DNA from: Patescibacteria group bacterium
GTDB lineage: Bacteria; Patescibacteriota; Patescibacteriia; UBA9934
Direction: 5' to 3'
Length of the DNA: 64,000 nt
NCBI GenBank assembly: GCA_038064675.1
Contig: JBBTSM010000002.1
Span: 145,852-209,851, forward strand
Shown: piece after piece, positions 5,175 through 28,882 of the stretch
Layout: the number at the start of each line of letters is the position of its first letter
How positions within the stretch are numbered: the stretch's first letter is position 1
Notes under the pieces: model-generated
The model's input: the letters and a program-made list of their open reading frames with translations, nothing else
Told to the model about the DNA's origin: nothing
Databases searched by the model: none
Position numbers and translations under genes: made by a program

Positions 5175-5251
5175 GGGTCGGTAGCTCAACTGGTTAGAGC
5201 GCTGCCCTGTCACGGCAGAGGTTGCGGGTTCGAGTCCCGTCCGTCCCGCCA
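5175..5251 (+). tRNA. tRNA-Asp (anticodon GTC).
   Basis: Manual fold: 7-bp acceptor stem GGGTCGG/CCGTCCC, D-arm GCTC..GAGC, anticodon stem CTGCC/GGCAG with loop CTGTCAC, T-arm GCGGG TTCGAGT CCCGT, and a terminal CCA. Confidence 0.85.
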
Positions 5252-5302
5252 GAAAACGACTTCACCTTGGTGAGGTCGTTTTCTTTTTGGGTTAGCGGAA
5301 TT

Positions 5303-6424
5303 TTATGCCGTCACGAGAGTATTCACCGTCCGATTTTGCTCCCAAGAAATAACAGTGTTGCCCGCCTGTTGCCCGGGAACCTCAATTATCGTTTCGAGAA
5401 CCTGTACCGCATCGTGAAGAGAGGCTGATGTTAGGTGGGCGTATCGCTCCGTCATCGCGATCGTGGAATGACCGAGAAGCTCCTGAATGACTCGGAGAGA
5501 GATGCCCTTTATTGCGAGATGCGAAGCGAACGTGTGGCGCAACAGATGCCAGCCCACTTTCCGATCAATTCCAGCATTCCGACAAAGGCGCTTCAATTCT
5601 CGGGTTGCTCCATCGGTACTCCACGGCTTTTCGCCCAGACCGGGGAACGGGAACATGAGTCCCCTTGGTTTGCGCTCCATATAGAGCGAGTGACGCAAAT
5701 CACCAGCGAGTGGAACATGACGAATTCTGTGACTTTTTGTTGTTGTCATTTCTCGTCGAACCCACGATCGTTGGACAGCGACGGTATTTCCCTCGAAGTC
5801 GATATCACTCCACGAAAGTCCCAGAAGCTCCCCCAGCCGCAACCCCGTCCGAAGAGCGACAAAGATCATTCTATGCAGCAATGCGGGTGCTGGCGCGGCT
5901 AGGAGCCTTACAGCTTCGTGCTCTGAAAGAAAATCCACACGTCGCGAATGCGACTTCATCAGCGCAATACGAGGTATCGAGGAGATTTTCTCCCATTCGA
6001 CCGCTGATCGTAGGCAGCGACCGAGTACTGTTAGCTGATTGTTAATCGACTTGGACGATAGCCCCTCATCGCGCTTACGCGCCTTGTATCGCTCGATGTC
6101 TTCTCCGGCAATGCGATCAATCCGTATCTTTCCAAAGAAAGGCACAAGATGTCGTTGAAGGATTGATGCCTTCATTCTGCGTTCTGAGAGTTTATTGTTT
6201 GCGGCGACATAGGAATCCATCCAGCTAACTGAGAACTCCGAAAAAATCGGAGCGTCCACGGGTTTCTCTAGATGACCATCGCGCGCGAACCTCGCTCGTA
6301 ACATCGCCTCATATGCCGCAGCACCAGCGCGACTATTTTCCGGACTTCTTTTGCGGCAACGGACACACGCTATGCTGAAGTCCACCCACCATGTGTTTCG
6401 CATTTTTCGTACGCTCATACTCAT
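5303..6424 (-). CDS. int: Tyrosine-type site-specific integrase.
   Basis: The C-terminal catalytic region has 'HLLRHTFASHLA' (HxxR) and 'LGHSTIAMTERYAHL' (catalytic Tyr). The ORF is open to 6559, but the likely start is the internal 'MSMSVRKMRN' methionine. Confidence 0.8.
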   Translation of the reverse strand: MSMSVRKMRNTWWVDFSIACVRCRKRSPENSRAGAAAYEAMLRARFARDGHLEKPVDAPIFSEFSVSWMDSYVAANNKLSERRMKASILQRHLVPFFGKIRIDRIAGEDIERYKARKRDEGLSSKSINNQLTVLGRCLRSAVEWEKISSIPRIALMKSHSRRVDFLSEHEAVRLLAAPAPALLHRMIFVALRTGLRLGELLGLSWSDIDFEGNTVAVQRSWVRREMTTTKSHRIRHVPLAGDLRHSLYMERKPRGLMFPFPGLGEKPWSTDGATRELKRLCRNAGIDRKVGWHLLRHTFASHLAIKGISLRVIQELLGHSTIAMTERYAHLTSASLHDAVQVLETIIEVPGQQAGNTVISWEQNRTVNTLVTA

Positions 6425-6629
6425 TCGACTGCGCCACGAGGTGTCTTTCAATATACGTATCAACGTCTGAACGTCGAAAACGAATATAACGAGGGAACCG
6501 ATAGAACGGAATCGACTTTCGTCCGACAATGCGGTACACAGTCTGTTCCGAAATATCAAGGAATTTGGCCAAGCCTTTTACATCGAAGAATTCCTTTTGT
6601 TCAGTTTCTACCTCGTGGCTGCCTGTCAT
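6333..6629 (-). CDS. xis: Excisionase/AlpA-like helix-turn-helix DNA-binding protein.
   Basis: 'DVKGLAKFLDISEQTVYRIVGRKSIPFYRF' is an excisionase-family HTH. The gene lies directly upstream of the integrase on the same strand. Confidence 0.55.
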   Translation of the reverse strand: MTGSHEVETEQKEFFDVKGLAKFLDISEQTVYRIVGRKSIPFYRFPRYIRFRRSDVDTYIERHLVAQSNEYERTKNAKHMVGGLQHSVCPLPQKKSGK

Positions 6630-6713
6630 ATTAATTTTGAATGAGCAACGTTCCGGGCACGATTTTTTGATCGTGTATAGGTTTGCTCATCATAGTTGAT
6701 TTAATAGATATTG

Positions 6714-6917
6714 CTAAGCGGTTCGACTATAAATTTGCACACGTTCCTCGAAGGGTAATTCTGATTTCGGTATAGATGCGTAATAGCCACAGGGTTTTTT
6801 CGCGCCACACTGAAAGTAGACGTATTTCTTTCGTCGAGTGCACCGTAACGGAGATTTTCCACACCAAAGACACGTTTTATTCCAAAGTTCACGAACCGCA
6901 CTAAATTTTCTATTCAT
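6714..6917 (-). CDS. Small Cys-rich (zinc-ribbon-like) hypothetical protein, island cargo.
   Basis: A 67-aa ORF with CLWC...C...FQC...KPC spacing. An ORF in the other frame at 6701-6901 was considered less likely. Confidence 0.25.
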   Translation of the reverse strand: MNRKFSAVRELWNKTCLWCGKSPLRCTRRKKYVYFQCGAKKPCGYYASIPKSELPFEERVQIYSRTA

Positions 6918-7112
6918 ATTCAGATTACCTTCGCTCTCCCTCAGTGCACTGAGGAAGCCGACATTGGGTTGTATTAAGAGTCATGGCCATGGGGTTGAGC
7001 CCGAGCACACTGGCGAATCCAGCTTCAGGCGTGGTAGACATGGTCACGAATATGTAGAACGTATCGTCGAAAAGTTTTAAGTCGTTCCACGGATAGTCTG
7101 GACTTGGTGAAT

Positions 7113-7397
7113 CTAATTGCCGTCGTACATTCGAGCTTTGACGAACTTCATGTGTCGAGAAAATTCCTGCGGTTCAACTCGCATTCGTCGCATCCAAAAA
7201 GATTGGATTGCCGCTTCAAGCTCTTCTGATCGTTGAATGTAAAAAGCTACTCGTCCATCCTGATCTTTTTCCGTTGCCTCGATACAAAAACCGAGAAGCG
7301 AAAGTGATGAAACAAGAATCCAATCACGAGTCACGAAGGATCTATGCCCTGAATCTTCATCGTTATTCATATATGTTTTCTTAATCGAAAAGACCAT
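7113..7397 (-). CDS. Hypothetical protein, island cargo.
   Basis: A 94-aa ORF on the same strand as the integrase, AT-rich. Confidence 0.3.
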   Translation of the reverse strand: MVFSIKKTYMNNDEDSGHRSFVTRDWILVSSLSLLGFCIEATEKDQDGRVAFYIQRSEELEAAIQSFWMRRMRVEPQEFSRHMKFVKARMYDGN

Positions 7398-7488
7398 GCG
7401 CGCAGCATGATCTTTTTTCTAAAAATAGTCGTTCGGATTTAAGCCCCTGACTAAATCCAGCAGACTTTTTATGGATTATCCGATGTTT

Positions 7489-8445
7489 TTAGGCATTAAT
7501 CTCCACTAATCCACAGCTTATTTCTGAAACGATTTGTCGAATTGTTCCTGCATCTATTTTCAGCCCACCATTTTCTGGTCTTGATAGCCAAGTCTGTAAC
7601 TTAACATCAGGATTCTTTCCGGCCGTTTTAAAAACTTGATATTGGTTATAGATTCTTACATTACGCAAGAAGTTTCTATCCGCACTCATTCTTTTGCCCT
7701 CAGGTATTGATCTTCCCGCTTTCAAGCAAAGAGAAATGCTATCCCAATTCTTTTCTATATATCCCAAGAGTTCTTCTTTTTCCGTTGTGTCGTCAAAAAC
7801 AAGCTCACAGACTTTTGGGGCAAGCTCTTTGGGCTCAGTAATCGGAAGTTTAAGCGAAGGAAAAAGCTCGCTTCCCGGTAACTTTATGGGTGTCGCTGCG
7901 AGTATCTCCAAACTTTTCGCAATATCTGCTTTGAGCTCTTCTGGGGTAAAACGAAGGATTTGATTCACTTTCCTACTCGTAACGTCGGTTTTGAAACTAA
8001 TCGTATTTGAAATGTTTGGATAAGCGAATTCCTTGCTCCAGATTTCAAATTCCAGAGAAAAGGATGGGAAGCTCTTTATATCCATCGAATGCTCGAAATA
8101 TAGATGCTCGATAATTTGAGATGCTGTTTTTACAAAGTACTCCTTTTCGTTTTCGGTAACATTTTTGAAATAATTTCCAAGAACCACACGATCCAAATAT
8201 TTTCGAATAACATCGGAAACGTCCTCATCCTTCTCGCATAACGGATAGCTCAAGCCTTTCCTCATCTTTAGATAATGTGCGTCTAAATGAAATAATAGCC
8301 CTTGAAAATCGTTTCTCAGGATAAGAACTTTGAGAGAATGAGCAACACGAAACTCTTTATTTTTAAGGAGAAATTCGTAACATCGACAGCCAAAATCATC
8401 CAACTCTATTTTTGTATTCTCATTCTTCATATTCGCATTATGCAA
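7489..8445 (-). CDS. Hypothetical protein (318 aa), island cargo.
   Basis: A long AT-rich ORF with no recognisable catalytic motif. Confidence 0.45.
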   Translation of the reverse strand: MHNANMKNENTKIELDDFGCRCYEFLLKNKEFRVAHSLKVLILRNDFQGLLFHLDAHYLKMRKGLSYPLCEKDEDVSDVIRKYLDRVVLGNYFKNVTENEKEYFVKTASQIIEHLYFEHSMDIKSFPSFSLEFEIWSKEFAYPNISNTISFKTDVTSRKVNQILRFTPEELKADIAKSLEILAATPIKLPGSELFPSLKLPITEPKELAPKVCELVFDDTTEKEELLGYIEKNWDSISLCLKAGRSIPEGKRMSADRNFLRNVRIYNQYQVFKTAGKNPDVKLQTWLSRPENGGLKIDAGTIRQIVSEISCGLVEINA

Positions 8446-8473
8446 GTATGGTAAGCAATATCACCTACAATGA

Positions 8474-8786
8474 AAATGGTAGAAAAAGGTGGAAATACGA
8501 CGTTTCAAAAATGGTAGCAAATGGTCGCATTTTGGAGAGATGGAGACTAAAAAAGGTGGGAAATGGTGGGATTTTATAAATGGTGGAAAAGGGTGGAAAT
8601 TTGAGGTTTTAAAAATGTTGGAAAAACATGGAAATTCGTGGAATTAAAAGGGTCGAAAAAGGTCGAATCTCGTTAGTGAAGAATTGGCGGAAAAAGGCGG
8701 ATACTCAATAGCTAGAAAATGGCTGGAATGGTCTGGTTTTTGAGTTATGAAAAATGGTAGGCAAAGGTAGGATTTTTATTGGAAAA
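8474..8786. repeat. Array of nine degenerate ~35-bp tandem units. Each unit carries a unit-specific GG-word duplicated across an A-tract.
   Basis: Every unit has the form atGG-W-aaaaa-GG-W-aat...aaaa with a 10-bp internal period. Examples: ggtcgAAAAAggtcgAAT; ggcggAAAAAggcggATA; ggtaggCAAAggtaggATT; ggtggAAAAgggtggAAAT; ggctggAAtggtctggTTT. Confidence 0.7.
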
Positions 8787-8853
8787 TAAGGGAACTCGCC
8801 CGATCGAAGTGTCTGCTAGCCGAAGCCTTTCTTTTTCGCTATACTCCGTCTTG

Positions 8854-8988
8854 TCGAGCTTCAACCCAAAACACGGGCAATTTTTGCCTTATCGGATCGC
8901 GCGCTATAAGCGGCACCGATAAAACAACACAGCACGATCCGTCGTGTTGGGTTGAGGCTCGACACCTTCGGTGTCGCTTTTTGTTTTT
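8854..8988 (+). ncRNA. Candidate structured RNA or leader: a ~21-bp imperfect long-range stem enclosing ~67 nt, immediately followed by an intrinsic terminator.
   Basis: The left arm 'gtcgagcttcaacccaaaacacg' (8854-8875) pairs with 'cgtgttgggttgaggctcgac' (8943-8963). A terminator hairpin gacaccttcggtgtc plus a T-run follows at 8961-8988. Confidence 0.35.
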
Positions 8989-8994
8989 AAAAAT

Positions 8995-9330
8995 ATGGAA
9001 GAGTTCATCGCATATTTCTACGTCGGGATTCCAATAATCGTTATTGTCGTTATCGCTTTTCTACGGACAAAGAAAAAGATGAAAAGGATCAAAACGATCC
9101 AATCGATTCCGGAGAAGGATCGAACAACATCTGAAAGTAAATGGTTAAAATGGATTCGCTTTCTTTTGGAAATTATCATTCCGGCATACATAATCATCGT
9201 TCAAGGCTTTTTTGCCTATTTCGGTTATGGAAGCGGGCATCTACCTTGGTCAATTCTAGCTGTCTTTGTTGGTATAGCCCTTCACTTCGCCATACGAAGC
9301 TTCTTTCGAAATAAATTCGAAAACTCCTAA
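8995..9330 (+). CDS. Small membrane protein (first gene of the four-gene island operon).
   Basis: The ATG at 8995 is chosen because the 8971 start would lie inside the terminator stem. The product has about three transmembrane segments and a basic loop. Confidence 0.45.
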   Translation: MEEFIAYFYVGIPIIVIVVIAFLRTKKKMKRIKTIQSIPEKDRTTSESKWLKWIRFLLEIIIPAYIIIVQGFFAYFGYGSGHLPWSILAVFVGIALHFAIRSFFRNKFENS

Positions 9331-9342
9331 TAGATCGCCCCT

Positions 9343-9780
9343 ATGGAGAATCAAAAGGCGATCAAAGGAATCTCCCAAGAAAATAGGAAACTCATTTCCG
9401 GAACGTTATTCTTGGTTCTTTTTCTTTGGGTTTTTAACGGAATCTACGGAACGCTTATCTCCTTTGGATTATCGGCTGTTTTTTATTGGCTGCTCGATAG
9501 GATTGGAAAAGAATATGAATTCGATTCAGCGACAAACGAAAGGCTGAGAAGGGTCGTCTGGGGCATGATCGCGGGTGCACTTATCGTTGGATCGATACTG
9601 GCATTCAACTCCAAAAACCATACAGAGTGCGATCAACAGGTGCGAACAAGGGACGGTTACGAATGTGTTGGAGATTATGTTGCCGTTAAAGGGGGAGATG
9701 TTGTTGCGGGGGTATTATTAGCTATATTCGGTATTGCAGCCGCAAAAGTCTCGATAACGAAGGCTGACAGCGAGGCGTAA
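9343..9780 (+). CDS. Small membrane protein (second gene of the operon).
   Basis: Predicted to have three to four transmembrane segments, with a 12-nt gap to the upstream gene. Confidence 0.45.
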   Translation: MENQKAIKGISQENRKLISGTLFLVLFLWVFNGIYGTLISFGLSAVFYWLLDRIGKEYEFDSATNERLRRVVWGMIAGALIVGSILAFNSKNHTECDQQVRTRDGYECVGDYVAVKGGDVVAGVLLAIFGIAAAKVSITKADSEA

Positions 9781-9795
9781 CCCAATCTTCGGCCT

Positions 9796-10575
9796 ATGCT
9801 CAGATTTCTTGTTCCTGAACGATTTGAAGGCTTGAACGAGCAGGGTCTGACGAATGACCAAGCTATAGAGGCGCTCGTGCGAAAATATATTCAAGGCTAT
9901 AAACACGAATGTCCCAATACATCCTCGATTGCGGACGAAGATGATCGAAGTGCTACCGAAACTCTTCAAATCGGCGGGAAAATGGACACCCTATACGCAC
10001 TTAGTCGTTTGTATTTTAAACATTTAGATGAATTGGTGGATTCAGAAGCTGCCAGTCGATTAAAATCAGAAATCGCACAAGGCATCGGGGAAGAAAACCT
10101 ATTCCGAGATAAAGAGAGCTCCCCCGAAGAAGACCAGCAGAAAATGATCCGTAATTTACTAGATTACGTAGAATATACGGGGGAGGATGACCGAGTGATA
10201 AGCGTCTTAGCTACTCTAAAAAGAGACGTTTATAGAAAATCTACCAAATACGTCTTGGGCGATTTTGGTGTGCCGAACCCACTCTTGACCGAGGAGGCGG
10301 AGAAAACCGTGTCTGAAGGCTCTACGCGCTTCCTGAACGCGTTTAGAAGTCTGTATCCCGACCAATTTACCGGTAATCTCGAATTAGAAAACGACGGGTT
10401 GTTTTTCGTTGGCGAAATAGTCTCTCGCACACGGGTAATCTCCCAAGGAATGTACCCAGAATATGCTGACAACATTAGTCAAAGTGTTATTTTTGAAATC
10501 CTTCTTTCCCTCGATTCGATTCTTGGATCAAGAACCGCTTGGGATCAGGAATTCTGCGCTTGGATTTGTCATTAA
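9796..10575 (+). CDS. Hypothetical acidic cytoplasmic protein (third gene of the operon).
   Basis: A 259-aa Glu/Asp-rich product with no TM segments. The gap to the next gene is 47 nt. Confidence 0.45.
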   Translation: MLRFLVPERFEGLNEQGLTNDQAIEALVRKYIQGYKHECPNTSSIADEDDRSATETLQIGGKMDTLYALSRLYFKHLDELVDSEAASRLKSEIAQGIGEENLFRDKESSPEEDQQKMIRNLLDYVEYTGEDDRVISVLATLKRDVYRKSTKYVLGDFGVPNPLLTEEAEKTVSEGSTRFLNAFRSLYPDQFTGNLELENDGLFFVGEIVSRTRVISQGMYPEYADNISQSVIFEILLSLDSILGSRTAWDQEFCAWICH

Positions 10576-10622
10576 CTAAGGAGTAATATCAAGTTAACAC
10601 TTTAATAGCTACAATTAACGCT

Positions 10623-12620
10623 ATGGAATCAATTCAGATTAAAGGTAATGGCGTTAAATCGGTGCTTCGCAAGTTCAATAGAGCCCAATCCTTCGCTGAA
10701 TATGTCTGGAACGGTTTTGATGCTGGAGCAAAGAGCGTTAACATCAACTTTAAGACTGACAACATTTTTGATTCAGTTAACGAGATCAGCATATCTGATG
10801 ATGGAAGCGGCATCCCGTACCAGTTGCTAGAGGGCAAATTCAAGCCATTCTTTGAATCTGAAAAGGCGAGATTGAATGATCCGCAACATCGATCGCTGCC
10901 ACACGGAAAGAACGGCATTGGTCGCCTAACCTTCTACACTTTTGCACGCGAAGCTACATGGGAAACGATTTACTCTAAAAACGATAAGAAATTTTCTTAC
11001 ACAATTAAAATCACACAAAAAAGCCTAGAGAATTACGAAGGTAGTCACGACGAACAGAAGGAGGTCGCCACAGAAAAAACAGGAACAACGGTGGTATTTC
11101 GTTCGATTGAAGGGCTTACTCCTAGCATCATTAGAGATGAGATTGTAGATTTTTTAAAAACTGAATTCTGTTGGTTTTTAGAGTCGAAAAAGACCGCTGG
11201 CTTTTCCTTAAAAATTAACGGAGTTGATTTGGATTATGACGATATCGTCAATAACAAGGAGCGCATAGATTTGGTGCATCCTGATTCGGGAACAAAATTC
11301 TCACTAAACTTTATTCAATGGACTCGACATTTATCGAAAGAGTATTCCCGATGGTATCTGATTGATTCAAATGGAATGGAAAAATGGAAAAACGCGACTA
11401 GATTGAATAACAAAGGTGATAACTTTTTTCATAGCGTTTTTGTTTCGAGTAGCTATTTTGATGACTTTATATACGATCCGGATAAGACAGAAGAAGATAA
11501 GACGCTTTTCGGGCATTCAAAGGGTGATCCGGAGTTTAAATACTTGTTGGAGGAATTGAACAGATTCTTGTACAAAAAACGAAAACCGTTTTTAAAAAAT
11601 TCAGCAATCAAACTTATAAAGAATTATGAAACCGAGGGAATTATCCCAAAATTCAAAGAGCCATGGGAATTACCAAGAAAAGATGAGTTAGAGACGCTTA
11701 TCCGTGGACTGTATGAAATACAGCCTCGTCTCTTTTCGAGCTCATCCATAGAGCAAAAGAGGACATTTGTCCTTCTTCTAAATGCACTACTTGACTCAGA
11801 AGATCGAGAGCAGCTTTTAGATATCATTAATAACGTTCTCGAACTGAGTAGAGAAGATAGAACGGAATTAGTTGAGTTATTGAAAGTTACAAAGCTTTCT
11901 GGGATTATTAGCACAATTAAATTAATAAAAGAACGTTATAAAACGATCGATCAAGTTAAGGAGCTAGTCTTTAACCCCACTTTAAAAGCAAATGAAAGAG
12001 ATCATTTGCAGAAAATAATTGATGCACACTATTGGATCTTTGGTGAGAAATACAATCTAGTTTCATCTACAGAAATAAAGTTCCAAAAAGTACTTGAAAG
12101 CTATCTACATTTATTAGGAATCGAAAATAAGGCAGAAGTCATAACACATGTTGATAGGAATAAAGAGATGGATATATTTCTGTGCAGACAAAATATCTCA
12201 GTCGATACAATCGAGAATGTAGTAGTTGAGCTGAAGAGTCCAACCGTACCGCTCGGAGAAAATGAGCTATCACAGGTTAAAAGATACATGAGCGTTATCC
12301 TCAGCGCTGCCCAATTCAACGCAAATAACATGCAGTGGGATTTCATTTTGATTGGAAATAAATTCGATACCAGTGGTTTTATACAAAACGAGATTAAAAA
12401 TGCGGAAAGTCACGGCGAAAAGAGTAAGGGATTAGCATTCAAAACGGATCGTTATCGTATATATGTTCGCACGTGGAGTGAGGTATTAAACGACGTAGGA
12501 ATTCGACACGACTTCTTGCAAAAGAGGCTTGAACTTGATCGAAATAAACTGACTAAAGATTACGTTTCAGCAGATGATGTCGTCATAGACGCCGGAAAGA
12601 ATCTTGAGACGGTTGCGTAA
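10623..12620 (+). CDS. GHKL-family (MORC/MutL-like Bergerat fold) ATPase fused to a C-terminal PD-(D/E)xK nuclease-like domain. Predicted defence effector.
   Basis: N-box 'EYVWNGFDAGAK', G1 box 'ISISDDGSGIP' and G2 box 'HGKNGIGRL' mark the ATPase. The C-terminus 'DIFLCRQNISVDTIENVVVELKSP' fits a D...ExK nuclease motif. Confidence 0.6.
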   Translation: MESIQIKGNGVKSVLRKFNRAQSFAEYVWNGFDAGAKSVNINFKTDNIFDSVNEISISDDGSGIPYQLLEGKFKPFFESEKARLNDPQHRSLPHGKNGIGRLTFYTFAREATWETIYSKNDKKFSYTIKITQKSLENYEGSHDEQKEVATEKTGTTVVFRSIEGLTPSIIRDEIVDFLKTEFCWFLESKKTAGFSLKINGVDLDYDDIVNNKERIDLVHPDSGTKFSLNFIQWTRHLSKEYSRWYLIDSNGMEKWKNATRLNNKGDNFFHSVFVSSSYFDDFIYDPDKTEEDKTLFGHSKGDPEFKYLLEELNRFLYKKRKPFLKNSAIKLIKNYETEGIIPKFKEPWELPRKDELETLIRGLYEIQPRLFSSSSIEQKRTFVLLLNALLDSEDREQLLDIINNVLELSREDRTELVELLKVTKLSGIISTIKLIKERYKTIDQVKELVFNPTLKANERDHLQKIIDAHYWIFGEKYNLVSSTEIKFQKVLESYLHLLGIENKAEVITHVDRNKEMDIFLCRQNISVDTIENVVVELKSPTVPLGENELSQVKRYMSVILSAAQFNANNMQWDFILIGNKFDTSGFIQNEIKNAESHGEKSKGLAFKTDRYRIYVRTWSEVLNDVGIRHDFLQKRLELDRNKLTKDYVSADDVVIDAGKNLETVA

Positions 12621-12819
12621 TCCCTTTTTAGGTTTAAAAAATGTGTCTTTCTTAACAAAACCTACTATTTACTTCTCGATGTCCACAGTTTAAGAGAATG
12701 TCGGTGTATACTATGGGTACCATCAAATGTTGACAAAATGGCTAGATTTGAGACAATATTCCGTTACAAATCGAAAACCCCGATCGACTTGAGAATCAAC
12801 GGGGCTTCGATAATGAGAG

Positions 12820-12981
12820 TTACGCCTGCAAAATGCCCTCAATCTCACGGTTGATGGGCTTTTTGAATATGTGAAGATAGTAATAGATTTCTCCATCAAC
12901 CATCGTCTTCAACACTTTGCCCGGAGGATAATCCTCAAGCTCGGTGTCCCCCCATATTCGAAGAGGGTTCGGTACAATCAT
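12820..12981 (-). CDS. Possible 53-aa small ORF (MIVPNPLRIWGDTELEDYPPGKVLKTMVDGEIYYYLHIFKKPINREIEGILQA), found by manual translation.
   Basis: It falls below the ORF-track length cutoff. A hairpin (ccccgatcgacttgagaatcaacgggg, 12776-12806) lies downstream of its stop. Confidence 0.2.
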   Translation of the reverse strand: MIVPNPLRIWGDTELEDYPPGKVLKTMVDGEIYYYLHIFKKPINREIEGILQA

Positions 12982-13421
12982 AGTGATTCCCGTTATACCC
13001 TCAGGAGCCTGAGTGCGCGCTGGAGCTTATGCGCCCCCTCTGCCAGAGATGGGGGCAAAAGGGAAGCGTAAACAAAACACACGCTCAGGGCGAAACGAGA
13101 AGCTTTCCCTTTCGGGAAGAAAATCCAGTTCCATCCTAGGCGTGCGTGTTTTGAGTACGTAGTCCATTATGGTTGTGGCCTTTCCACTTCATGTTTCGTT
13201 CATATCGATTGCTCGATACGAAGATAGAGTAGCACATTCGCCCGCCAAAATACAGCGATCACCTCCCGGACGGTGTTGCCCGCCCGTTGCCTATAAGGTG
13301 ATGGGATCTGTATTTTTGTGAGTACTCGTGATGGCTAGTGAGAAACGAGAAATTAGCCTAGCTATCGCCAACTTCGTACCTTTTCGGCCATTTTTTCTTT
13401 TTTCCTAATTTTGCGTCATCA

Positions 13422-13446
13422 GGTTCGAGTCCCGTCCGTCCCGCCA
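13422..13446. repeat. attR-like 25-bp direct repeat identical to the tRNA-Asp 3' end.
   Basis: 'ggttcgagtcccgtccgtcccgcca' is identical to 5227-5251. It is followed by the terminator hairpin atccttcagc-tttt-gctgagggat. Confidence 0.7.
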
Positions 13447-13605: not shown

Positions 13606-14616
13606 ATGAAATACATTGATGTTAAGGAGTTGAAAGAGATCGTGCAAAGTGGGCATATGAACCTACTGGTTGGTTCCGGCTGTTCGCGCGACTATCTCTC
13701 GACATTGAGCGACATTGAAGTTCGCATGAATGCCCCGGAAACCGCCGAGCAAGCGCAAAAGGATTACTGTGAGCTAATATTGAAGTCTAAGGCTGTCCTC
13801 AGCCCGAGCCGGGAGCGCAGTGCAACGGAGAATGGCCGCCTAACTAAGACGAGGGAAAATTACAACGCGTTTCTAGGCCTACTCGCCGAAATTATCACGA
13901 AACGGTCGCTGCATATCGTCAACAAGCAGGTAAATATCTTTACAACAAATTTTGACGTGTTCATGGAAGAAACGTGCGAGCGACTCGGTATTCCTTATAA
14001 TGACGGATTTTCTGGTCAGATCCACCGCGTGTTCCGTACCGCAAATTTTAACAGGATTCAGAAATATAAGAGCTTACAGTTTGACAACACTTCGGACGTA
14101 CCAATTTTTAATATCATCAAGCTTCATGGGTCCACTTCTTGGCGAGTAAGGGGAGAGGAGATCGTCTACTCGGACGGCGCACATATCGACGACGATCTTG
14201 CCGAAAAGGACAGAGAGGATTTTTTGGATGGCTACAAAAAGCAGATCGCGGTCATCAACCCCAACGCCGAGAAACATTTTGAGACAGTACTCGACACGAC
14301 GTACGCGTCGTTGCTTCGAAAGTTCACCCTAGAGTTAGAAAAAGAGAACAGCGTACTTATCGTCATCGGTTTCTCGCTTACCGATGCCCATATTAGGCAT
14401 CTTCTCTACGGGGTCATGCAGTCCAATCCCACCCTCGTGGTTATTTACTACTCGCATTCTCCCTACAACGAAATGAGTGACAAGCTCGATGAAAAGAAAC
14501 ACCAGAACCTCTACGTGATTTCGCCTGAGCCGAGCTTCACCCTCGATAAGATCACCGGGCACCTTAGAAAAGCGTGTCTCGGAGACACGGATCCAGCCTA
14601 TGGAATCGAAGAATAA
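13606..14616 (+). CDS. SIR2-family NAD-dependent protein of the SIR2-HerA anti-phage system.
   Basis: The motifs 'NLLVGSGCS', 'IFTTNFD' and 'IIKLHGSTSW' form a SIR2-like Rossmann signature. The gene overlaps the HerA gene by 17 nt. Confidence 0.75.
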   Translation: MKYIDVKELKEIVQSGHMNLLVGSGCSRDYLSTLSDIEVRMNAPETAEQAQKDYCELILKSKAVLSPSRERSATENGRLTKTRENYNAFLGLLAEIITKRSLHIVNKQVNIFTTNFDVFMEETCERLGIPYNDGFSGQIHRVFRTANFNRIQKYKSLQFDNTSDVPIFNIIKLHGSTSWRVRGEEIVYSDGAHIDDDLAEKDREDFLDGYKKQIAVINPNAEKHFETVLDTTYASLLRKFTLELEKENSVLIVIGFSLTDAHIRHLLYGVMQSNPTLVVIYYSHSPYNEMSDKLDEKKHQNLYVISPEPSFTLDKITGHLRKACLGDTDPAYGIEE

Positions 14617-16486
14617 GTATCCGCTTGACGACCAGATCACGTATGATTCGGTGTTCACCATTGGCAACGTCGAAGGCGTAAAAGGAAAGGAGATCGTCGT
14701 GAGGGTGAAGAAGGATAAGAACCTTCCCCATCTCTTTTTTCATGGGAGAACTATCAAGAACGTGTCGGTCGGTCTTTCCAATTACGTAAAGATCATGAAG
14801 GGCTTTACCGAGATTATCTGCAAGGTCGAGGGAGAATATCTCGAAGAAGATCGGTCGAATGCTCGTAAGCCATACACGAACGAAAGGGCGAAGATCAACA
14901 GGTTCCTTAACGTTTCTGTGTTCGGATTTTACGATCACGATCAGAAGTTCCAGCATGGCATAAAGGAGATGCCTCTCGTTGGGAGCGAATGCAGGCTACT
15001 TTCCAGGGAGGAGTTTGAGACGTTACACCGACTTGCAAATGCTAACGAGCTATCTGTGCGACTCGGATCACTCGTCGATGAGGAAGCACAGTCTATCTCC
15101 ATCTCGGTAAAAAATCTGTTCGCTGGTCATATCGGTATCTTTGGGAACACCGGCTCAGGAAAGTCCAACACACTGGCGAAAATGTACTCGGAGCTCTTTC
15201 ATCTCTCAAAACTAAACGGTGCATTTAAGCGAAAGTCCAAGTTTATTTTTATCGACTTCAATGGGGAGTATTCGAGGGACGGCGCGGATCAAATTTTAAC
15301 TGAAGACAAGGCCGTCTTTCGATTACAAACAAGGGGTGCCTCTGGTTCGAAGTACCCAATATCAAAAGACGAGGTAGAAAAGTTGGAACTGCTCTCAATC
15401 CTGCTGGACGCCACGGAAAAGACGCAGCAACCATTCCTTCAGCGTGCCCTTGAACGATTGTGGTTCGACACTGACAATGATTACTTCGTCAAAGAAGTCG
15501 AAAGTATCACTCGGAAAATCCGAGAAATTTTGCTGAACAAGGAATCTCGCTTCGGCGTCTCATTTCTTAACAAGTTCGTCAAGGATTTCTCACAGCTTGG
15601 CTTTACAATCGTCAATACCTCGAAAAATCTGGACGATATAAAATACCATTCAAATAACCATTCGTTTTATTTTGTTGATGGCACTGACACGACATTATAC
15701 TCGGATAGGGATATCGAAAAATTCTTCGGGGAAGAAGGCTACTTTGACATATCCGCCCCAAGCAACATGGCGGTTCTGCGCAGGATTCAGTTTAAAATTT
15801 TCGACAATTATTACTTCGAGCTAATGAACGGGTACGTCAATGAGGAGCACATCGGTCCTTTAATGGGTCGCGTGAAGAAGCGGTTTAACATGCTGGATAA
15901 AGTCTTCGAAATAGACGGGCACACGGCCGATCACGCGAACATTCACGTCGTCGATTTAAAGAACGTAAATCTCGAGATTAAAAAGGTTATTCCGCTCCTC
16001 ATCTGTAAGACGCGTTATGACGAACAGAAGGAGCGGCGCAATGAGGACCAGGAAAACTCGCTCCATATCATTATCGACGAGGCGCATAATATTTTGTCGG
16101 AAAATTCAACTCGCGAAGCAGAGTCCTGGAAGGATTACCGACTGGAGACGTTCGAAGAAATCATCAAGGAGGGTAGAAAGTTTGGTGTGTTTCTCACTAT
16201 CGCGAGTCAGAGGCCGTCTGATATCTCCCCCACGATTATTTCTCAGTTGCACAATTATTTCATTCACAGGCTCATGAATGAGAATGACCTAAAGGCGATC
16301 AACAGGGCCGTCAGTTACCTAGATAAACTTTCGTTTGATTCGATCTCCAACCTTTCGATTGGCTGTTGCTTCATTGCGGGACAGATGACGCAATTTCCTC
16401 TTTCGATAAAAGTGGAACTTCTTGAACGCATTAGGAGGCCACAGAGCGAGACAGTCAACCTAGATACACTATGGCGAATGGAATAG
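14600..16486 (+). CDS. HerA-like (FtsK/HerA superfamily) ATPase partner of the SIR2 protein.
   Basis: Walker A 'GIFGNTGSGKSNT', Walker B 'LHIIIDEAHNI', and 'FLTIASQRPSDIS' (typical of HerA). Confidence 0.75.
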   Translation: MESKNKYPLDDQITYDSVFTIGNVEGVKGKEIVVRVKKDKNLPHLFFHGRTIKNVSVGLSNYVKIMKGFTEIICKVEGEYLEEDRSNARKPYTNERAKINRFLNVSVFGFYDHDQKFQHGIKEMPLVGSECRLLSREEFETLHRLANANELSVRLGSLVDEEAQSISISVKNLFAGHIGIFGNTGSGKSNTLAKMYSELFHLSKLNGAFKRKSKFIFIDFNGEYSRDGADQILTEDKAVFRLQTRGASGSKYPISKDEVEKLELLSILLDATEKTQQPFLQRALERLWFDTDNDYFVKEVESITRKIREILLNKESRFGVSFLNKFVKDFSQLGFTIVNTSKNLDDIKYHSNNHSFYFVDGTDTTLYSDRDIEKFFGEEGYFDISAPSNMAVLRRIQFKIFDNYYFELMNGYVNEEHIGPLMGRVKKRFNMLDKVFEIDGHTADHANIHVVDLKNVNLEIKKVIPLLICKTRYDEQKERRNEDQENSLHIIIDEAHNILSENSTREAESWKDYRLETFEEIIKEGRKFGVFLTIASQRPSDISPTIISQLHNYFIHRLMNENDLKAINRAVSYLDKLSFDSISNLSIGCCFIAGQMTQFPLSIKVELLERIRRPQSETVNLDTLWRME

Positions 16487-27862: not shown

Positions 27863-28420
27863 CTAGGTCTGACGAGCTAAAATCATGTTCATCCTTCCAT
27901 CAACCGCCTTTAAGGGGCTTTCAACGCGGATAGGATAATGGGTTCCCAATTGCTTCACAAAGTCATCAAATACGGCTCGGGCCACGTCGCCATGGGCGCG
28001 TTCTCGGCCGCGAAGGATCATTTCCACCTTTACTTTATCGCCTTGTTCAAAGAACTTTGCGGCCTGTTCTACACGGATCTGAAGGTCGCCGGAACCGATA
28101 CGCATGGAAAGGCGAATGCCCTTGATTTCCACCTCTTTACTTTGGGCGCGTTGCTTTCGCATCTCCTTTTCCTTCTGATATTTGAAATGGCTGTAGTCGG
28201 CGAATTTACACACTGGTGGCTCGGCTAATGGCGAAACCTCGATAAGATCCATGCCCTTCTCCCGTGCGAGTTCAATAGCCTTCGCGGTGGTCATGACGCC
28301 AAGCGGCTTACCCTCGTCATCAATAACGCGCACTTCTGGTGCGAGAATATTGTGGTTTGCCTTAAATTCCTGAATTTCGAACTTCGGCTTCTGAAATCTT
28401 CGATGTCTGTGGATGCGCAT
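27863..28420 (-). CDS. infC: Translation initiation factor IF-3.
   Basis: 'IRVIDDEGKPLGVMTTAKAIELAREKGMDLIEVSP' matches IF-3. The true start may be a non-ATG codon. Confidence 0.9.
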   Translation of the reverse strand: MRIHRHRRFQKPKFEIQEFKANHNILAPEVRVIDDEGKPLGVMTTAKAIELAREKGMDLIEVSPLAEPPVCKFADYSHFKYQKEKEMRKQRAQSKEVEIKGIRLSMRIGSGDLQIRVEQAAKFFEQGDKVKVEMILRGRERAHGDVARAVFDDFVKQLGTHYPIRVESPLKAVDGRMNMILARQT

Positions 28421-28483
28421 TTCTGTAGGGTTAAAGTTAGCGAAATGATAGACTAAAATGAAAAATTATGCTAGTATTTTGCT

Positions 28484-28882
28484 GGGCTTGACGGGTTTCG
28501 ATACTCTTCGGATCCTCACAAATCACGCCGGAAGGGCACCATATTCCGTAATCCCGTGGTGCAACGAGATACTTGCAAACGCATTCTCAAAGGTGAAGAG
28601 CATGATCGCTTCGGCGTTCAGCGTTCCTTCATTCTCATTGGTTACCGCCTAAGGGCCGCAACCCATCCACTTCGCAATGCCTCATAGCGGATGTTGGGTG
28701 CAATATTATGAGACTATAGGCGTTCTCTTGTTCGCTCAGAGAACGTAACCCGTTGCAGCGAAATCGTGTCGATGATTCTTGTTCCGTCTTATCATCGCCC
28801 CGTATCCGACGGAACTGCGCGTGGAACAAATTTGTTTGGTGAGGTGGGGTAGACGAGGGTTCAACTCCCTCCAGGTCCACCA
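28484..28882 (+). ncRNA. ssrA: tmRNA (SsrA).
   Basis: The 5' end 'GGGCTTGACGGGTTTCGAT' pairs with the 3' 'CAGGTCC-A-CCA'. The 3' tRNA-like T-arm 'GAGGGTTCAACTCCCTC' ends in CCA at 28882. A -10-like 'tagtat' lies just upstream. Confidence 0.75.

Follow-up and report, generated by a model that had tools for sequence, protein, structure and literature searches.

A single-orientation array of paired direct repeats, with a tenth unit beside attR, in a tRNA-Asp-integrated island of a Patescibacteria genome

The sites bound by recombination directionality factors (RDFs) are direct repeats set one helical turn apart, and those of Apl and RdfS occur both at attachment (att) sites and at promoters (PMC7498355, PMC11963761). 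Apl of phage 186 and Cox of the P2-like phages are small helix-turn-helix (HTH) RDFs that bend DNA and bind it cooperatively; for Apl, attP carries five sites and the interval from pR to pL another seven (PMC7498355). RdfS binds attP and its own promoter over extended DNA of low conservation and with low sequence specificity, probably through indirect readout and oligomerization (PMC11963761). Lambda Xis (sites X1, X1.5 and X2) and L5 gp36 assemble as head-to-tail monomers on direct repeats ~10 bp apart in the att arm distal to int, which they bend (PMC7498355). Here we describe an array of nine ~35-bp units, each holding two such closely spaced direct repeats, in a 64-kb stretch of DNA (hereafter the window, the whole stretch that was analyzed) from a Patescibacteria metagenome-assembled genome recovered from Hainich groundwater. 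The array is genuine and unusual, lies in the control region of a small integrative island and has one inverted copy next to the attR of that island.

Nine paired units and a tenth copy beside attR

The array, its outlying copy and the att sites are listed below, with positions counted from the first nucleotide of the window.

8472-8790, plus strand: array of nine units, from tandem repeats, alignment and direct reading
13355-13397, minus strand: tenth, inverted unit GAAAAAATGGCCGAAAAGGTACGAAGTTGGCGATAGCTAGGCT, from the weight-matrix scan and alignment with the array units
5175-5251: tRNA-Asp gene, the last 25 bp of which are the attL core
5227-5251, plus strand: attL core, 3' end of tRNA-Asp, in 25-bp direct repeat with attR
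13422-13446, plus strand: attR core, exact 25-bp copy of the attL core

An initial annotation, made from the letters of the window, had proposed nine units of ~35 bp, and this description was borne out by a regular register, by six invariant columns in a MAFFT alignment of the nine units and by Tandem Repeats Finder, which returned a period of 35 over 8551-8660 and a period of 10 inside several units. Units U1-U9 start at approximately 8472, 8507, 8549, 8576, 8611, 8645, 8680, 8715 and 8750; their first GG cores are at 8478, 8513, 8555, 8582, 8617, 8651, 8686, 8721 and 8756, and the successive unit periods are 35, 42, 27, 35, 34, 35, 35 and 35 bp. The units follow the consensus aAAAATGGT.GaAAAaGGTgGaAtTTtga....t.a, laid out as an A-tract, GG followed by a short word (GG-W), a second A-tract, a second GG-W and a poorly conserved A/T-rich tail of ~15 nt. 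All 18 half-sites, of the form AAAWGG-W, are on the plus strand. The first and second GG cores are 10 bp apart in eight of the nine units and 9 bp apart in U8, in agreement with the word-to-word spacing of about 10 bp reported initially. The sites thus come as pairs set 25 bp apart. A third site at +10 is confined to U5, apart from a weak one before U8, and the pair-to-pair period of 35 bp corresponds to 3.33 helical turns.

Mean identity between units is 57% overall and falls from 77% in the first A-tract and GG to 66% in the second and 39% in the tail, where 30% is expected by chance from composition. The 350-bp bin of the array contains 14 copies of the motif AAA[ATG]GGNN(N)G, all on the plus strand, and no other bin of the window has more than two. 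Composition of the plus strand is strongly skewed (37.7% A, 30% G, 25.6% T and 6.7% C), with a GC skew over the array of up to +0.59. The array is non-coding, since its period of 35 bp cannot be divided by three and stops interrupt all six frames; for the same reasons a coding-repeat reading was rejected. Its sequence is identical in all assemblies carrying the island among the independent assemblies examined. Neither a sigma-54 −24/−12 element (12-bp spacing, versus 10 bp here), nor a two-tetrad G-quadruplex pattern (which fits five of the nine units), nor a DnaA box (which fits only half-sites with W = TGG) describes the array. U5 (8611-8632) departs from the GG-W rule, with GTTGG and CATGG, because its halves form the inverted repeat ATGTT-GGAAA-AACAT, the sole local hairpin that is stable in the array's centroid fold. 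On direct reading, a degenerate unit-like stretch, ATGGTAAGCAAT, is present in the promoter region directly left of U1.

The annotation had further claimed that a word is duplicated within each unit and differs between units. Statistically this stands: the two halves of a unit share, on average, 3.44 of the 4 nt that follow GG, words from different units share 2.22 of 4, and the observed total was reached in 1 of 100,000 permutations (p~1e-5). Exact duplication is confined to five of the nine units (U3, U4, U6, U7 and U9); the words differ by one base in three others and, in U8, by a 1-nt insertion and a substitution (GGCTGG versus GGTCTGG). Recent copying of whole 10-mers is a poor explanation of the matches, because the base directly 5' of GG differs between the halves of all five exactly matched units.

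To look beyond the array, a position weight matrix (PWM) built from the nine 23-nt pair motifs was used to scan both strands of the window. The top match outside the array, AAAAATGGCCGAAAAGGTACGAA at 13373-13395 on the minus strand, scored 22.5 bits, compared to 13.3 bits for the next best. It belongs to an inverted tenth unit that aligns with the array over the full unit length, carries the tail 8-mer ATAGCTAG at the same offset as in U7 and ends 24 bp from the attR core. A score of at least 22.5 bits anywhere was reached in 0.7% of 300 simulated 64-kb sequences of island-like composition, and the chance of such a match falling beside the att core is far lower than that. No half-site cluster is present near attL, and the rest of the island has half-sites at background density.

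Helically phased A-tracts and strong intrinsic curvature had also been claimed. The AA/TT periodicity of the array is the strongest in the window, with a peak at 11.5-11.75 bp (equal to 35/3) rather than 10.5 bp, so that the tracts do not appear to be helically phased across the array. Curvature was predicted over 120-bp segments of the whole window with our own wedge-model script and approximate Bolshoy/Trifonov parameters. In this prediction, strong curvature is limited to the left third of the array: 8471-8600 ranks first among all 120-bp segments of the 64 kb, level with the DNA upstream of the tmRNA gene. The rest of the array is moderate to unremarkable, at about the 2nd-9th percentile over 8631-8731 and about the 20th-75th percentile elsewhere. 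The other top predictions in the window are 28400-28540, which runs from just before the tmRNA gene (28484-28882) into its start, and 12180-12700, comprising the 3' end of a GHKL ATPase gene and the following intergenic region.

A candidate operator set for an island protein

We tentatively read the array as a cis-acting set of binding sites for an HTH protein of the island, used both at the att arm and in the promoter region. The array is most likely a new architectural variant of RDF/regulator operator sets, carried by a Patescibacteria island. This reading draws on the following features of the island.

5303-6304, minus strand: tyrosine integrase of 333 aa in the public gene call (Phage_integrase, 1e-30)
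6333-6629, minus strand: excisionase-family HTH_17 protein of 98 aa (HTH_17 / TIGR01764 'excise', 6e-10)
7489-8430, minus strand: gene of a 313-aa protein from a small uncharacterized family, first gene of the leftward core operon
8437-8464, minus strand: promoter-like site GTGATA-16-CATAAT for the 313-aa gene, from promoter scan and direct reading
8852-8985, plus strand: structured RNA-like element and intrinsic terminator, right-hand border of the array

Several observations argue for protein binding. Conservation is position-specific within otherwise diverged units, the 18 half-sites keep a strict single orientation and 10-bp pairing, and the array sits exactly between the leftward promoter-like site and the rightward RNA element. 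Outside the array, the pair motif has one strong match in the 64 kb, which adjoins attR; a copy in this place suggests sites at which a DNA-binding protein of the island docks rather than an RNA array. Consistent with this, neither strand of the array folds better than its shuffles (z = -1.26 and -1.23). The array and island share with known RDF operators the direct repeats one helical turn apart, a motif in the att arm and an integrase accompanied by a small HTH excisionase gene. The island has the parts needed for a cis-acting, protein-binding array that couples recombination with transcription, the reading we favor: besides its integrase it encodes an excisionase-family protein and one more HTH protein, the att arm distal to int holds a unit, and the control region holds the array. 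Among the roles suggested initially, a regulatory or protein-binding platform, or a recombination site, is the best supported, now also by the tenth unit beside attR; no specific evidence favors a xenogeneic-silencing target or a replication site.

We infer from this arrangement that an island-encoded HTH protein would bind each pair as two head-to-tail protomers. The 98-aa excisionase-family protein, a candidate RDF by its domain, would be the most likely binder, and the adjacent 313-aa protein, whose C-terminal ~55 aa are HTH-like, is the alternative candidate. The tenth unit would be a further target of this protein, and binding there may bend the att arm for excision. At the array, binding may set transcription of the int/xis core operon on the left and of the RNA element and cargo on the right, with the A/T tracts and the predicted left-end curvature helping the DNA to wrap.

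Among the closest described systems are the Apl (phage 186) and Cox (P2-like) operators, same-orientation repeats one helical turn apart that lie at att and between the main early promoters; the island likewise has an array between promoters, a unit at attR and an excisionase-family gene. Apl sites come as contiguous runs of seven and five at 10-11 bp, whereas the array consists of nine separated pairs at a 35-bp period over 313 bp, with one att unit. In addition, the promoters controlled by Apl are face-to-face and overlapped by its sites, whereas those of the island are divergent and lie outside the array, and the co-variation of words within pairs sets the array apart from both Apl and Cox operators. 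RdfS of ICEMlSymR7A, a winged-HTH RDF, offers a parallel in that its targets include both attP and promoter regions of the element that encodes it, although its sites have no consensus motif and the array has a clear repeated scaffold. Lambda Xis and L5 gp36 sites differ in being confined to att, with no large internal array.

Iterons and plasmid centromere repeats, such as F sopC and pSK41 parC, are tandem same-orientation sites, often with A-tracts or curvature, beside the gene for their binder. A typical iteron measures 17-22 bp, is near-identical to its neighbors and recurs every ~22 bp. The array differs from them in its 35-bp period and 57% mean identity, no Rep or Par genes were detected, and relatives of the neighboring gene lack arrays. 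Non-identity of the units had itself been given as grounds for ruling out an iteron array; this argument fails, as known RDF operator sets are degenerate (PMC7498355, PMC11963761).

RNA-based arrays were also compared. Systems with tandem interspaced guide RNAs (TIGR) are frequent in Patescibacteria (PMC12045711), and the array resembles theirs in its host and in a unit of ~35-36 nt with two internal repeats. The 36-nt TIGR unit contains edge and loop repeats of 8-12 nt and two spacers of ~9 nt, whereas the array has blocks 10 nt apart (~18 in TIGR), words of 3-4 nt and a tail of 7-20 nt. Assignment to TIGR was rejected, as UG...CCA framing of both repeats is absent on either strand (on the minus strand the first half-sites alone read ...ACCA), and no Nop-domain Tas protein was found among the neighboring proteins. 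Type III toxin-antitoxin (ToxI) repeats were rejected as well, since the units are 57% identical and neither Pfam nor PADLOC gave a ToxN/AbiQ match for the proteins encoded downstream. Nor is the array CRISPR-like, as already noted in the initial annotation: there is no conserved repeat of 24-48 nt, and no cas genes were found in the flanking proteins scanned against PADLOC. No Rfam family matched the array at gathering thresholds over the whole window or at E<=10 over 8300-9100.

The island and its relatives

Taken from the att repeats, the island spans 5252-13446 (~8.2 kb) and is integrated at tRNA-Asp. Two further features, one inside it and one outside, complete the map.

7113-7397, minus strand: DUF5659 protein, which accompanies the 313-aa family in related islands as a conserved partner
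13606-16486: SIR2-HerA system, just beyond the island end

With attR at 13422-13446, the SIR2-HerA system lies outside the island. As this pair stands just beyond an att-bounded island, the locus may be a composite defense hotspot. No convincing similarity to a relic internal att core was found beside the array.

In the leftward operon, the SAM-like core-binding domain of the integrase begins near residue 21, which leaves no space for a lambda-type arm-binding domain; lambda-type integrase arm sites are thus unlikely. Integrase relatives in IMG/VR are only 27% identical and uninformative. Apart from its HTH-like C terminus, the 313-aa protein has no Pfam or PDB match. The leftward gene that the annotation placed at 8445 is present, although the public gene call starts it at the ATG at 8430, 8445 being an upstream in-frame TTG. 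This ATG is 7 nt past the −10-like CATAAT, so the 313-aa mRNA may be leaderless. U1 abuts the −35 side of the same promoter-like site.

On the right, a −10-like hexamer, TATACT, at 8840-8845 precedes the RNA-like element. The multi-branched fold over 8852-8963 (-61.9 kcal/mol, z = -7.3) has a 17-bp closing stem (GTCGAGCTTCAACCCAA / TTGGGTTGAGGCTCGAC) around three hairpins, and the intrinsic terminator at 8960-8985 has CGAC in common with this stem, in a riboswitch-like layout. The element 8852-8985 has no Rfam match and is not LOOT, an RNA family discussed below. It lies 10 nt upstream of the gene for a 111-aa membrane protein, the first of four rightward cargo genes, followed by near-orphans of 145 and 259 aa and a GHKL ATPase of 665 aa that has a nuclease-like C terminus. 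The array fills the spacer between these two divergent transcription units and overlaps neither core promoter, which confirms its initial placement, with a divergent island gene on one side and the downstream operon on the other.

A word-indexed search of proteins returned no homolog for the 313-aa protein and one short-contig match for the 259-aa protein. An exhaustive HMMER scan of 1.8 billion representatives yielded 25 distant relatives of the 313-aa protein with 26-46% identity. In six metagenomic loci, a conserved core comprises the 313-aa-family gene, then DUF5659, then a recombinase of tyrosine or serine type (a large serine recombinase in L109 and L114), and adjoins tRNA genes. Variable, defense-like cargo occupies the divergent side of the core, including a type III restriction-modification system in L109. 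Three of the loci (L110, L112 and L114) encode a LOOT RNA (Rfam RF03000, 72-91 bits), divergent from the 313-aa-family gene and 70-140 bp upstream of it.

L110:2029-2150, minus strand: LOOT RNA (Rfam RF03000)
L112:674-795, minus strand: LOOT RNA (Rfam RF03000)
L114:5300-5430, minus strand: LOOT RNA (Rfam RF03000)

These RNAs come with a promoter of their own, TTGAC(G/A)-N17-CATAAT, and with a T-run terminator, beyond which a gene follows. Their position is that of the RNA-like element in the window, and LOOT, an orphan RNA family, is now tied to a conserved integrative-island core module. The inter-promoter spacer in the relatives is only 70-140 bp.

Wider searches at the DNA level were made as well. 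Annotated phages and plasmids contained no similar DNA by blastn. Pattern scans for two adjacent canonical units in IMG/VR and in one genome per GTDB species gave no true relative among the matches listed, which were chance singletons, 10-bp microsatellites and one phage contig; the GTDB representatives apparently do not include the genome of the window, so these scans had no positive control. The phage contig (L018; IMGVR_UViG_3300032050_008803) carries, at about 80-590, a 30-bp repeat in two blocks of seven and five copies that have flanking sequences in common. Its units are built much like those of the array, as AAAAATGGTTGG, then AAATGGTCGG, then a non-GG segment AAATACCG, with nearly the same half-site motif, but they are near-identical, recur every 30 bp in two blocks and belong to an unrelated phage fragment. 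The copy number of the 10-bp microsatellite (GGAAATGGAT)n varies among near-identical contigs (L004, L008, L014-L017 and L108 in IMG/VR; L067, L104 and L105 in genomes). In the viral contigs it sits directly upstream of a GGAGGT Shine-Dalgarno sequence and an ATG, and it may serve as a slippage-tuned translation or promoter spacer.

Weighing the explanations

Several points weigh against an operator array. Apl requires three adjacent sites (PMC7498355), and the array offers paired sites 25 bp apart without continuous 10-11-bp runs; contiguous runs of three or more sites, as would support cooperative binding as a filament, are lacking. At the island ends, there is one unit at attR and none at attL, whereas known RDF sets at att comprise three to five sites, and the two words of the attR unit are unequal. 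Within-unit word matching has no role in the operator model, and the strong strand asymmetry (6.7% C) would suit RNA equally. No such array is present in L109, L110, L112 or L114, in which the region upstream of the 313-aa-family gene is covered, or in two P0023 loci, and no array-like sequence occurs in L115 or L116; loci L109-L116 are all without it. As related islands lack it, the array appears to be a lineage-specific expansion of the inter-promoter spacer and to be dispensable for the core module.

Absence from all related islands would also suit a neutral or nearly neutral minisatellite, which we consider credible though unlikely. Under this explanation, slippage growth from a 10-bp AAATGGNNGG-type repeat or from a promoter-proximal segment would have produced an array that affects promoter spacing only, and the word matches would reflect exchange between neighboring 10-mers. 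Arrays of 10-bp AAATGGNNGG repeats are indeed common in unrelated genomes and phage contigs, where variants often stand beside an identical copy (L022, L074, L101 and L102); (GGAAATGGAT)n changes in copy number among near-identical viral contigs, some units of L018 have one variant in both halves, and a degenerate unit-like stretch lies directly left of U1. The units, however, are old, at 57% mean identity, and still hold the 35-bp register and position-specific conservation. In the five identical-word units the base 5' of GG differs between halves, the independent assemblies examined agree on the array, and a full-length tenth unit beside attR is not predicted by a neutral model. It is quite unlikely that the array is the replication origin (as iterons) or the partition centromere of the excised island, with the 313-aa protein as initiator or centromere binder. 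The island yielded no gene for Rep, a primase, a helicase or ParA/ParM, homologs of the 313-aa protein lack arrays, the units are far from identical with a 35-bp period unlike the ~22 bp of iterons, and the att-proximal unit is left unexplained. This is so despite the same-orientation repeats, A/T tracts and predicted curvature beside the gene for a DNA-binding-like protein. Where W = TGG, the minus strand of a half-site reads TTTTCCACC, matching the strict DnaA box TTATCCACA at seven of nine positions and the relaxed TTWTNCACA at eight of nine, but this likeness is limited to a minority of half-sites.

A purely architectural role, in which curved AT-rich DNA acts on the flanking promoters through the RNA polymerase alpha-CTD or nucleoid proteins and there is no island-specific binder, seems improbable. 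It would account for the top predicted curvature at 8471-8600, equal to that of the tmRNA upstream region, for the strongest AA/TT periodicity in the window and for U1 abutting the −35 side of the leftward promoter-like site. Curvature is predicted for part of the array only, however, the period is 11.7 bp and not 10.5 bp, and the GG..G cores, the matched words and the attR copy are unnecessary for A-tract curvature. Very improbable, in our view, is a transcribed array cut to ~35-nt units, which would be a guide or antitoxin array of the TIGR or ToxI kind or else a purine-rich RNA that soaks up an RNA-binding protein. The period is near the 36 nt of tigRNA and ToxI units, in a group in which TIGR is frequent (PMC12045711), all units are on one C-poor strand with ~17 GGA motifs on direct reading, and a weak promoter-like site at 8383-8412 (plus strand) and the terminator at 8960-8985 could bracket a transcript. 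TIGR anatomy nonetheless fails in block spacing (10 nt versus ~18 nt), in spacers (3-4 nt and an uneven tail versus two of 9 nt) and in the missing UG...CCA; the units are only 57% identical, neither strand gives a folding signal, no partner protein was found and the attR unit is inverted and isolated. Least weight is given to the matched words being functional in themselves, each unit acting as an 'address' that needs identical halves. One possibility is that graded or combinatorial sites are read through the word by a tandem dimer, giving an occupancy counter that times excision versus cargo expression. Another is that ~35-nt RNAs or single-stranded DNA elements, five units being G-quadruplex-compatible, act with the orphan proteins of the island. 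Either option, if true, would be an array type not previously described.

The matched words are the one feature of the array that could hide something new. Their matching is a clean statistical signal that could reveal sequence exchange between very short neighboring repeats or an unrecognized constraint on tandem-dimer sites. If the operator reading is true, a compact mobile island of Patescibacteria would be reusing a motif of its recombination site as a large internal control array, and excision would be linked to expression of the integrase operon and of defense-like cargo. Patescibacteria are poorly studied, and the unit PWM provides a sequence handle for control regions in similar islands.

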